From the IMG/VR virus record IMGVR_UViG_2700989368_000009: a DNA stretch of 5,052 nt; one strand, 5' to 3'. Positions 1 through 5,052 of the stretch are shown in pieces. Each line of letters begins with the position of its first letter. Within the stretch, counting starts at the first letter, position 1. This stretch comes from a virus. Taxonomy: Duplodnaviria; Heunggongvirae; Uroviricota; Caudoviricetes. Position numbers: made by a program.

Positions 1-3000
1 TTTGGCTGTACCAGCCGGGGGCAGGCACACCGCGCCGGGCTGTGGCTGATTAAAACGGAACTGCTGGAGACGCAGACCGTGGATTTCAGCGTGGGTGCTG
101 AAGGGCTTCGTCATGTACCGGGCGATGTCATTGAAATCTGCGATGATGACTATGCCGGTATCCGCACCGGCGGGCGCGTGCTGGCGGTGAACAGCCAGAC
201 CCGGACGCTGACGCTCGACCGTGAAATCACGCTGCCATCCTCCGGCACCACGCTGATAAGCCTGGTTGACGGGCAGGGGAATCCGGTCAGCGTGGAGGTC
301 CAGTCCGTCACCGACGGCGTGAAGGTAAAAGTGAGCCGTGTTCCTGACGGTGTTGCTGAATACAGCGTGTGGGGGCTGAAGCTGCCGACGCTGCACCAGC
401 GATTGTTCCGCTGCGTGAGTATCCGTGAGAACGACGACGGCACGTATGCCATCACCGCCGTGCAGCATGTGCCGGAAAAAGAAGCCATCGTGGATAACGG
501 GGCGCACTTTGACGGCGACCAGAGCGGCACGGTGAATGGTGTCACGCCGCCAGCGGTGCAGCACCTGACTGCCGAAGTCACCGCAGACAGCGGGGAATAT
601 CAGGTGCTGGCGCGCTGGGACACGCCGAAGGTGGTGAAGGGCGTGAGCTTCCTGCTCCGTCTGACCGTAACAGCGGATGACGGCAGTGAGCGGCTGGTCA
701 GCACGGCCCGGACGACGGAAACCACTTACCGCTTCACACAACTGGCGCTGGGGAACTACAGGCTGACAGTCCGGGCAGTAAATGCGTGGGGGCAGCAGGG
801 CGATCCGGCGTCGGTATCGTTCCGGATTGCCGCACCGGCAGCGCTGTCGCGGATTGAGCTGACGCCGGGCTATTTTCAGATAACCGCCACGCCGCATCTT
901 GCGGTTTATGATCCGACGGTACAGTTTGAGTTCTGGTTCTCGGAAAAGCGGATTGCGGATATCAGGCAGGTTGAAACCACAGCACGCTATCTTGGCACGG
1001 CGCTGTACTGGATAGCCGCCAGTATCAATATCAAACCGGGCCATGATTATTACTTTTATATCCGACAGAGCTTGTGGAGGATACGCAGGCCATTGCCCGT
1101 TACGGTCGTAACGTCACGAAGATGGATGCTTTTGGCTGTACCAGCCGGGGGCAGGCACACCGCGCCGGGCTGTGGCTGATTAAAACAGAACTGCTGGAAA
1201 CGCAGACCGTGGACTTCAGCGTGGGCGCAGAAGGGCTTCGCCATGTGCCGGGCGATGTCATTGAAATCTGTGATGATGACTATGCGGGTATCAGCATCGG
1301 CGGGCGCGTGCTGGCGGTAAACAGCCAGACCCGGACGCTGACGCTCGACCGTGAAATCACGCTGCCATCCTCCGGTACCACGCTGATAAGCCTGGTTGAC
1401 GGAAGTGGTAATCCGGTCAGCGTGGAGGTTCAGTCCGTCACCGACGGCGTGAAGGTGAAAGTGAGCCGTGTTCCTGACGGCGTTGCTGAATACAGCGTGT
1501 GGGGGCTGAAGCTGCCGACGCTGCACCAGCGATTGTTCCGCTGCGTGAGTATCCGTGAGAACGACGACGGCACGTATGCCATCACTGCCGTGCAGCATGT
1601 ACCGGAGAAAGAAGCCATCGTGGATAACGGGGCGCACTTTGACGGCGACCAGAGCGGCACGGTGAATGGTGTCACGCCGCCAGCGGTGCAGCACCTGACT
1701 GCCGAAGTCACCGCAGACAGCGGGGAATATCAGGTGCTGGCGCGCTGGGACACGCCGAAGGTGGTGAAGGGGGTGAGCTTTATGCTTCGCCTGACCGTGG
1801 CAGCGGATGACGGCAGTGAGCGGCTGGTCAGCACGGCCCGGACGACGGAAACCACTTACCGCTTCACACAACTGGCGCTGGGGAACTACAGGCTGACAGT
1901 CCGGGCAGTAAATGCGTGGGGGCAGCAGGGCGATCCGGCGTCGGTATCGTTCCGGATTGCCGCACCGGCAGCGCTGTCGCGGATTGAGCTGACGCCGGGC
2001 TATTTTCAGATAACCGCCACGCCGCATCTTGCGGTTTATGATCCGACGGTACAGTTTGAGTTCTGGTTCTCGGAAAAGCGGATTGCGGATATCAGGCAGG
2101 TTGAAACCACAGCACGCTATCTTGGCACGGCGCTGTACTGGATAGCCGCCAGTATCAATATCAAACCGGGCCATGATTATTACTTTTATATCCGCAGTGT
2201 GAACACCGTTGGCAAATCGGCATTCGTGGAGGCTGTTGGTCAGCCGAGTGATGATGCATCCGGTTATCTGGATTTTTTCAAAGGCGAGATAGGGAAAACC
2301 CATCTGGCTCAGGAGCTGTGGACGCAGATTGATAACGGTCAGCTTGCGCCTGACCTGGCTGAAATCAGGACGTCCATTACGGATGTCAGCAATGAAATCA
2401 CGCAGACCGTCAATAAGAAACTGGAAGACCAGAGTGCGGCAATTCAGCAGATACAGAAGGTTCAGGTTGATACAAATAATAACCTGAACAGCATGTGGGC
2501 TGTGAAGCTGCAGCAGATGCAGGACGGACGCCTTTATATCGCGGGTATTGGTGCCGGTATTGAGAACACCCCTGACGGCATGCAGAGTCAGGTGCTGCTG
2601 GCGGCGGACAGGATTGCGATGGTTAATCCTGCGAATGGCAACACAAAACCGATGTTTGTTGGTCAGGGCGATCAGATATTCATGAACGACGTGTTCCTGA
2701 AACGCCTGACGGCCCCCACCATTACCAGCGGTGGAAATCCATCGGCATTTTCCCTGACTCCGGACGGAAAGCTGACCGCTAAAAATGCGGATATCAGTGG
2801 CAGTGTGAATGCGAACGCCGGGACGCTCAACAATGTCACGGTAAATGAAAACTGTACGATTAAGGGCATGCTGGAGGCGACTCAGGTCAGAGGTGACTTC
2901 GTTAAAGCTGTATCCAAATCATTTCCGAAACAGGCTGGTACGTGGGGTAACACGGAAACACCAAACGGGACGGTTACAGTCACCATATCAGGTGCTGGCG

Positions 3001-5052
3001 CGCTGGGACACGCCGAAGGTGGTGAAGGGGGTGAGCTTTATGCTTCGCCTGACCGTGGCAGCGGATGACGGCAGTGAGCGGCTGGTCAGCACGGCCCGGA
3101 CGACGGAAACCACATACCGCTTCACGCAACTGGCGCTGGGACGGTACACGCTGACAGTCCGGGCGGTAAATGCCTGGGGACAGCAGGGCGATCCGGCGTC
3201 GGTATCGTTCAGGATTGCCGCACCGGTAGCACCGTCGCGGATTGAGCTGACGCCGGGCTATTTTCAGATAACCGCAACGCCGCATCTTGCCGTTTATGAT
3301 TCGACGGTACAGTTTGAGTTCTGGTTCTCGGAAAAGCGGATTGCGGATATCAGGCAGGTTGAAACCACAGCCCGCTATCTTGGCACGGCGCTGTACTGGA
3401 TAGCCGCCAGTATCAATATCAAACCGGGCCATGATTATTACTTTTATATCCGCAGTGTGAACACCGTTGGCAAATCGGCATTCGTGGAGGCCGTCGGTCG
3501 GGCGAGCGATGATGCGGAAGGTTACCTGGATTTTTTCAAAGGCAAGATAACCGAATCCCATCTCGGTAAAGAGCTGCTGGAAAAAGTTGATCTGACGGAG
3601 GATAACGCCAGCAGACTGGATGAGTTTTCGAAAGAGTGGAAGGACGCTAACGATAAATGGAATGCGATGTGGGGCGTCAAAATTGAGCAGACCAAAGACG
3701 GCAAACATTATGTCGCGGGTATTGGCCTCAGCATGGAGGACACGGAGGAAGGCAAGCTGAGCCAGTTTCTGGTTGCCGCCAATCGTATCGCGTTTATTGA
3801 CCCGGCAAACGGGAATGAAACGCCGATGTTTGTGGCGCAGGGCAACCAGATATTCATGAACGACGTGTTCCTGAAGCGCCTGACAGCCCCCGCCATTACC
3901 AGCGGTGGCAGTCCTCCGGTATTTTCCCTGACATCAGACGGAAAGCTGACCGCTAAAAATGCGGATATCAGTGGTAGTGTGAATGCGAACTCAGGAACGC
4001 TCAACAATGTCACGATTAACCAGAACTGTACGATTAAGGGCATGCTGGAGGCGACCCAGGTCAGAGGGGATTTCGTTAAAGCTGTATCAAAAGCCTTCCC
4101 GAAAAAAGTCGGTACGTGGGGTAACACGGAAACACCAGACGGTACGGTTACAGTCACCATCAGCGATGATCATAACTTTGACCGCCAGATTATTATTCCG
4201 CCCATTATTTTTAACGGTATAGCGTATGACGATCCGGGGAGCGGAAATAACCCAGCCATTCCCGGTAGTTACAGTGCAGTTATTGATATGCCTAGTGGTG
4301 GTGGTAGCGTCACTCTGGAGTTTAAGATTTTCCAGAAAGGCAATCAGGGGGCAGGCAATATCACCGACTGTACGGTGATTGTGACCAAAAAAGCGGCTTC
4401 CGGCATCAGTATTCGTTGAAATATTTATAACCCCAATAAATGGCGTCAGGAATGACGCCTTTTTTATTGCAGAAAAGCGAGAGGTAATTATGCGTAAAGT
4501 TTGTGCAGCCATTTTGTCCGCAGCCATTTGCCTGGCCGTATCCGGTGCGCCTGCATGGGCGTCTGAACATCAGTCCACGCTGAGCGCGGGGTATCTTCAT
4601 GCCCGGACCAACGTTCCCGGCAGTGATGATCTGAACGGGATTAACGTGAAATACCGTTATGAGTTTACGGATACGCTGGGGCTGGTGACGTCATTCAGCT
4701 ATGCAGGAGACAAGAATCGCCAGCTTACCCGTTACAGCGATACCCGCTGGCATGAAGATTCCGTGCGTAACCGCTGGTTCAGCGTGATGGTGGGGCCGTC
4801 TGTGCGCGTGAATGAATGGTTCAGCGCGTATGCGATGGCGGGTATGGCTTACAGCCGTGTGTCGACTTTTTCCGGGGATTATATCCGCGTAACTGACAAT
4901 AAGGGGAAAACGCACGATGTGCTGACCGGAAGTGATGACGGTCGCCACAGCAACACGTCTCTGGCGCACTGACGGTTTCATCGTGGGTGTCGGTTATAAA
5001 TTCTGATTAGCCAGGTAACACAGTGTTATGACAGCCCGCCGGTTCAGGCGGG

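Follow-up and report, generated by a model that had tools for sequence, protein, structure and literature searches.

A tandem array of J gene fragments in a Shigella sonnei prophage contig is most likely an assembly artefact of separate, naturally mosaic alleles

Introduction

Reports on lambdoid phages describe mosaicism that arises via homologous or homeologous recombination between phages and prophages, defective ones included (PMC2327257, PMC3945230, PMC9836094). Here we analyse a 5,052-nucleotide (nt) stretch of viral DNA (IMG/VR record IMGVR_UViG_2700989368_000009; hereafter the window), in which three partial copies of the tail-tip attachment (host specificity) gene J, termed A, B and C, stand in tandem ahead of lom, the gene for an Ail/Lom outer-membrane protein. 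The copies form a patchwork of identical and diverged blocks that resembles a recombination record. Comparison with J genes of other genomes indicates that the array is very probably a scaffolding or gap-closing artefact, composed of pieces of two or three separate prophage J genes of one Shigella sonnei genome.

Three further systems serve as points of comparison. Phage lambda gpJ and lom share with the window the domain order Phage-tail_3, Ig_J, Ig_J_second, Phage_Tail_Tip, Ig_GpJ_C and then Ail/Lom, with which RefSeq annotation agrees. Unlike lambda, the window holds no complete J frame, whereas the natural allele that we call X encodes a normal J of 1165 amino acids (aa). Silent-cassette and diversity systems (diversity-generating retroelements (DGRs), invertible tail-fibre segments and pilS-like cassettes) also place several partial, diverged receptor-binding copies beside an expressed copy, but the repeats of the window are the conserved Ig region and not the receptor-binding tip. 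We rejected DGR, cassette and inversion mechanisms, as the window contains no inverted repeats and no recombinase or reverse transcriptase open reading frame (ORF). Lastly, genome assembly itself can generate such structures. The gap-closing program GapFiller extends base by base, halts at allelic ambiguity and merges on an overlap of at least 10 nt, and false joins are a possible outcome of SSPACE and GapFiller according to the authors of the Sanger pipeline (PMC5320598, PMC3446322).

Results

An exact protein look-up identified the window as the entire contig CXOG01000264.1 of the Shigella sonnei draft assembly GCA_001252935.1, whose lom product is deposited under Shigella sonnei. The contig is free of Ns and consists solely of multi-copy prophage sequence. 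Its best matches among complete Escherichia coli genomes and phages are annotated as gpJ or host specificity protein J and as Ail/Lom, and in these records the 5,052-nt query maps onto ~2,975 nt, equal to one single J. Pfam matches exceed the curated cut-offs in all three fragments and together give the lambda gpJ domain series, with Ail_Lom downstream; Ig_GpJ_C is reached by fragment C alone, where a 78-nt gap splits it. Within the window there is no trace of a single uninterrupted J frame (~1130-1165 aa), the three fragments lying in frames 1, 3 and 1. For comparison we fetched ~110 reference J loci (identified by L-numbers), among them 80 loci from IMG/VR. Segments of the window found matches of just 98-99% identity at best among complete E. 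coli genomes; the parental alleles described below surfaced only in IMG/VR.

We compared the copies in register, with offsets of 1130 between A and B and 1258 between B and C. Over 1-1064, A and B differ at 31 sites, every one at or before position 670, and the next 394 nt (671-1064 against 1801-2194) are identical. This clustering exceeds chance (maximum chi-square breakpoint at 670, permutation p = 0.008), and none of 20,000 shuffles produced an identical run as long as 394 nt. B and C are identical over 1727-1855 and 2985-3113, including sites at which B differs from A. Beyond 1855 they differ at 18 sites in 1856-2114 and at none in 2115-2233, and past 2233 their C-terminal domains diverge (76% identity); the clustering of B/C differences, taken alone, is weak (p ~0.09-0.10). 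An earlier, sequence-only reading of the window had reported about 30 A/B differences followed by identity, and a copy C that first equals B and then departs from it. These counts bear that pattern out, with mismatches spread unevenly along A and B and marginally so along B and C.

The differences between A and B fall at codon position 3 in 25 of the 31 cases, 23 of them are transitions, and 24 codon differences are synonymous against 5 that are non-synonymous. Being mostly synonymous third-position transitions, they look like old allelic divergence under purifying selection rather than decay after duplication. The same spectrum, which is not adenine-specific, was a further ground for rejecting a DGR. 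The sequence-only reading was right that the sharp switches did not arise by independent point mutation, since they set different J allele lineages side by side. The anatomy of the array includes features that it had not described: the junctions at which A ends and C starts are non-homologous and break the frame, 66 nt of upstream J sequence (1065-1130) are placed between A and B, 78 nt of J are missing at 4254/4255, and the window is itself one entire short draft contig.

The pieces trace to natural alleles found elsewhere (Table 1). Copy A matches L006 (3001-4064) with 0 mismatches, and copy B has 0 mismatches to L006 past position 1800. In L005 and L006, the sequence of window 1-1064 runs directly into that of 2195-2987, both 100% identical, and 4255-5052, lom deletion included, lies downstream with 3 mismatches. 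Deleting 1065-2194 from the window restores this allele, X, exactly. In L006 it forms an intact 1165-aa ORF, and X is colinear within N-free stretches of 8 sibling contigs. The 5' part of copy B (1065-1855) differs from L085 at 9 sites clustered at 1381-1607, and copy C differs from L085 (1347-2615) at 9 sites, all inside 3276-3389; L085 matches 3800-4253 exactly, and L012 does so over 3260-3400. The window also repeats itself where the pieces overlap, 1856-2194 repeating 726-1064 and the first 127 nt of copy C repeating 1729-1855.

We considered three parental alleles, X, Y and Z, and rejected them because natural contigs carry the Y and Z patterns together. Of these patterns, one of 141 nt is found in the window only in the 5' part of B and one of 138 nt only in C, and both occur in L085-L088, 660 nt apart. 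This is exactly their distance in J coordinates, so both belong to one allele, W. Compared site by site, the sequences assign copy A to X, copy B to a W-like allele up to 1855 and to X from 1856, and copy C to a W-like allele. The identity between copy A and the 3' part of B is therefore that of X with itself, and the identity between copy C and the 5' part of B that of W with itself, the same allele having been written twice. The sequence-only reading had called for at least three J alleles. Two parental lineages explain most sites, and a third may add short stretches: 1381-1607, 3276-3389 and three single-nucleotide polymorphisms (SNPs) in lom match neither L006 nor L085 and may derive from further alleles. 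That reading had also named copies matching separate prophage alleles as a sign of misassembly, and this is essentially what we found. Each piece matches an allele that exists separately (X pieces at 100% to L005 and L006, W pieces with 9 + 9 mismatches to L085), and X and W are colinear on N-free contigs elsewhere.

As a side observation, copy B flips between X-like and W-like states over 20-40 nt within 1471-1650 (W at 1481, X at 1521-1565, W at 1586-1601). This segment holds 60-mers found in none of the ~110 reference loci and could stem from yet another allele of this genome or from a chimeric consensus.

Table 1 Coordinates of the J pieces, junctions and neighbouring features in the window
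Feature	Position	Strand	Description
Copy A, allele X	1..1064	+	J nt 1306-2369; end of Phage-tail_3, Ig_J, first part of Ig_J_second; frame 1
J1	1063..1065	+	X J nt 2369, then back 1130 nt to J nt 1240; CG alone shared; frame broken
5' part of copy B, W-like	1065..1855	+	J nt 1240-2030; frame 3
3' part of copy B, allele X	1856..2986	+	J nt 2031-3161; includes X-type Phage_Tail_Tip domain
J2	2985..2987	+	X J nt ~3161, then back to W J nt ~1904; ATA shared; frame broken
Copy C, W-like	2987..4253	+	J nt ~1904-3255; part of Ig_J, Ig_J_second, Phage_Tail_Tip, start of receptor-binding domain; frame 1
J3	4254..4255	+	78 nt (26 codons, GGTRYTGYGFEVRKNGVLIASRETKG) of the Ig_GpJ_C receptor-binding domain missing; in frame; 1 nt shared
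3' end of J including stop	4255..4419	+	J nt 3334-3498; X = W throughout
Terminator-like hairpin and T-run	4442-4459	+	between J and lom
lom (Ail/Lom outer-membrane protein)	4490..4972	+	cut to 160 aa by deletion; Pfam Ail_Lom profile positions 1-159 of 199

The alleles themselves are real mosaics. Across 80 distinct alleles aligned over 1169 nt, 165 sites of the J panel are informative and the Hudson-Kaplan method requires at least 70 events, with near-neighbour site incompatibility below that of all 1000 permutations. X and W show 3-33 differences per 100 nt up to window copy-B coordinate ~2970 and then differ at 2 sites in ~3 kb. On the natural contigs, L006 4858-7857 and L085 2524-5523 have 2 differences over ~3 kb, directly after a region with 10-33 differences per 100 nt. 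The block common to both comprises the 3' end of J, the deleted lom and the start of a tail-fibre gene. In sequence terms, there is a sharp natural recombination breakpoint between X and W at J nt ~3160. J allele mosaicism is therefore real and is ordinary homologous recombination among lambdoid prophages, already known biology, and nothing in it goes past prior description. As in described lambdoid mosaicism, independent X and W contigs alternate identical and 3-33% divergent blocks and the panel signal is strong. Unlike in the window's array, the alleles that give this signal belong to different loci or different genomes and are not tandem copies.

The sequence-only reading had explained the patchwork by three tandem J alleles trading blocks through gene conversion or homologous crossover. 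Its claim of recombination among J alleles stands for the natural alleles, which are truly recombinant, but not for the window, whose blocks were not exchanged among three tandem copies. The sharp block structure is confirmed, and diverged prophage genes may, in general, plausibly undergo gene conversion. However, the identical blocks need no exchange within the array, as A and the 3' part of B are both X and C and the 5' part of B are both W, and two lineages suffice for most sites. Furthermore, the junctions that delimit the copies lack homology, break the frame and were seen in no other assembly searched. We consider block trading between tandem copies very improbable.

We examined the three junctions, J1 to J3, in 5,426 complete E. 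coli genomes (by megablast), IMG/VR, GTDB species representatives and JGI metagenomes, J1 and J2 being sought as exact sequences in the last three. J1 was found in none of these sets and J2 was contiguous in none of them, and J3 was absent from the complete E. coli genomes and IMG/VR, the two sets to which its search was limited. A genuine tandem duplication would be expected to leave junctions that recur in independent assemblies of the lineage, and for J1, J2 and J3 none recurred in the sets searched. Likewise, the junction-spanning products that we looked up are on record solely for contig CXOG01000264.1 or are absent from the databases consulted.

The junction positions coincide with allelic differences. 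Immediately 5' of the ACAGAGC motif at J1, the base is a G/A polymorphism in the fetched panel (8 of 55 occurrences). Position 2987 at J2 is the second-to-last difference between X and W (X ATA, W ATC) and position 4254 at J3 is the last, so the left sides of J2 and J3 are the last two X/W differences, at the onset of and within the ~3 kb that has only 2 differing sites. The base preceding contig position 1, visible in copy B at 1130, is another X/W difference. At J3, the two halves lie 78 nt farther apart in ~1,100 complete E. coli genomes, and the 78 nt are also present in both parental alleles. Because the join falls on the last X/W difference, the gap is probably an unfilled scaffold gap rather than a deletion. 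Copy C begins 127 (126-129) nt ahead of the first B/C difference. We tried to explain all boundaries by one k and failed: 127 nt fits the start of C only, with the end of A giving 80 and the start of B 122. After several such comparisons, the 127-nt figure is suggestive only.

Joins of the same kind occur in other assemblies. In sibling scaffolds such as UViG_2693429679_000007 and UViG_2700989365_000006, J fragments of X (100%) and W (99.9%) take turns, and a single N marks each backward jump, at positions unlike those of the window. In copy-A coordinates, UViG_2693429679_000007 reads W(-860..920) N X(-196..715) .. W(171..1766) N X(446..1949). An inherited array would give identical breakpoints, so this variation among siblings argues against one. 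Backward jumps at single Ns were found in L086, L087, L089, L091, L093, L097, L099, L102, L104, L108 and L111, and N-free joins in L110 and L112. Over-long J proteins from a homology search led to several of these: in S. sonnei FTVF01000064.1 (L108), an ORF of 1720 aa continues across an N; S. sonnei CXBN01000105.1 (L112), a neighbouring accession (CX- prefix, GCA_00125-), makes an N-free backward jump via an 11-nt chance overlap; E. coli UDFK01000007.1 (L111) jumps backward at single Ns; and E. coli MUGA01000174.1 (L110) joins J pieces without Ns, through overlaps of 0-2 nt or with one stray base, in the anatomy seen in the window.

X and W co-occur in IMG genomes 2700989365 and 2693429679, there only as scaffold pieces split by Ns. 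This bears on the idea that the two alleles came from two strains, through a mixed culture or a contaminated library, and were interleaved by the assembler. Such a mixture would be expected to give the same graph tangle and the same type of join. However, these genomes make at least two independent sibling assemblies besides the window's own that carry both alleles. It is simpler to suppose that X and W reside together in the S. sonnei lineage, and we give a two-strain origin hardly any credence.

Discussion

The array could still be real. Two resident prophage J genes, X and W-like, would then have undergone two illegitimate duplicating joins plus homologous exchange, leaving a scrambled, frame-shifted J pseudogene array upstream of the deleted lom. 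If true, the window would record recombination between prophages in the course of reshaping a receptor-binding gene. N-free junctions with 1-3 nt of microhomology are as expected of illegitimate recombination, lom close by has a genuine, inherited deletion between 6-nt repeats, S. sonnei has several J-bearing prophages, and a perfect internal J duplication exists in another genome (L109, below). Yet this account requires three private non-homologous events within 3.2 kb of one isolate, both large ones backward and between different alleles. It offers no biological reason for breakpoints to fall on sites where X and W differ and at the border of the 3-kb stretch in which they are identical. No other assembly shares the junctions, the fetched X-bearing siblings keep X colinear in each N-free stretch, and like joins, variable in position and often marked by N, are common in other drafts. 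We regard a real array as unlikely.

Instead, the tandem array is most likely not a real feature, and a scaffolding or gap-closing error would account for it as follows. The S. sonnei isolate would carry several lambdoid prophages, or remnants of them, with J genes that share blocks of 75-100% identity, and a short-read assembler would have split the J region into allele-specific pieces. Read pairs bridging the shared stretches could then have led the scaffolder to set X and W-like pieces in series and not in parallel. The resulting order would be X (J nt 1306-2369), W-like/X (1240-3161), W-like (1904-3255) and the shared 3' end with lom. Piece ends would have been extended up to allelic differences and then abutted without a gap. 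We infer the programs behind the joins and the cause of the missing N at each, as well as, from the accession batch and the single-N style, an origin of this assembly in the Sanger pipeline. The window resembles known false joins in that near-identical parallel pieces are laid in series, all large jumps go backward, sequence is duplicated where ends were extended, breakpoints sit at allelic differences and siblings carry single Ns.

Direct observation covers the parentage of the pieces, the colinearity of X and W elsewhere, the uniqueness and anatomy of the junctions and the like joins in siblings. Because the three junctions are unique, X is colinear in siblings, the breakpoints lie on allelic differences and siblings are joined at Ns, the array is very probably not real.

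Several findings weigh against an assembly origin. All three joins are N-free and overlap by just 1-3 nt, bearing neither an N mark nor a k-mer-sized overlap, and thus fit neither a de Bruijn graph error nor the published closure rule of GapFiller. We considered that rule as the source of the joins and rejected it: its threshold of at least 10 nt accounts for the 11-nt join of L112 and does not explain overlaps of 1-3 nt, and in this respect the window is unlike the false joins that GapFiller would produce. The W-to-X switch inside copy B (1801-1855) also occurs naturally, L017 matching it exactly and many complete E. coli genomes at 99.6% identity, so B could be a genuine third allele rather than a chimera. 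Finally, L109 (E. coli JBNDCC010000003.1), a 904-kb N-free contig, has a perfect in-frame tandem duplication of 610 nt within J, and real internal duplications of J may therefore occur in principle.

The J of L109 (6001-9915) encodes 1304 aa, with the Ig_J/Ig_J_second region duplicated around a 5-nt AAAAA filler and an IS66 insertion close to the 3' end. The start of its second copy and that of the window's copy C are 4-7 nt apart. We gave this proximity no weight, because ~20 junction positions were compared and we estimate it to be within chance.

These results call for caution, as short contigs from genomes with multiple prophages can yield signals of recombination or duplication that were made by assembly. 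Protein databases already contain over-long 'host specificity protein J' entries (1408-1720 aa) that arose from the same class of artefact. The underlying real biology, namely mosaic J alleles and the 3-kb block with the lom deletion shared by X and W, is already well described for lambdoid phages.

Flanking features

Downstream of J, lom is not a full-length beta-barrel (~199 aa) and stops at 160 aa. A frame-shifting 83-nt deletion between CTGGCG direct repeats, joined at 4961-4966, has removed its last strands. We found the same deletion in N-free siblings (L005-L007, L085, L097 and others; 9 loci cover it, some from the same contig). In the top complete E. coli matches, the two lom halves lie 83 nt farther apart and match as 2 pieces, and these copies are thus undeleted. 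From these sequences, the lom deletion looks like a real lineage marker. Relative to otherwise identical sibling contigs, lom carries the three SNPs mentioned above, at 4726, 4791 and 4844. Several lom copies collapsed into one consensus, or a small tract of conversion, could explain them. Two of the three, at 4726 and 4791, are also seen in other lom alleles (L065, L088 and L109). A second GC-rich hairpin (CCCGCC...GGCGGG) lies 3' of lom at 5034-5052, where the contig end cuts just ahead of its T-run.

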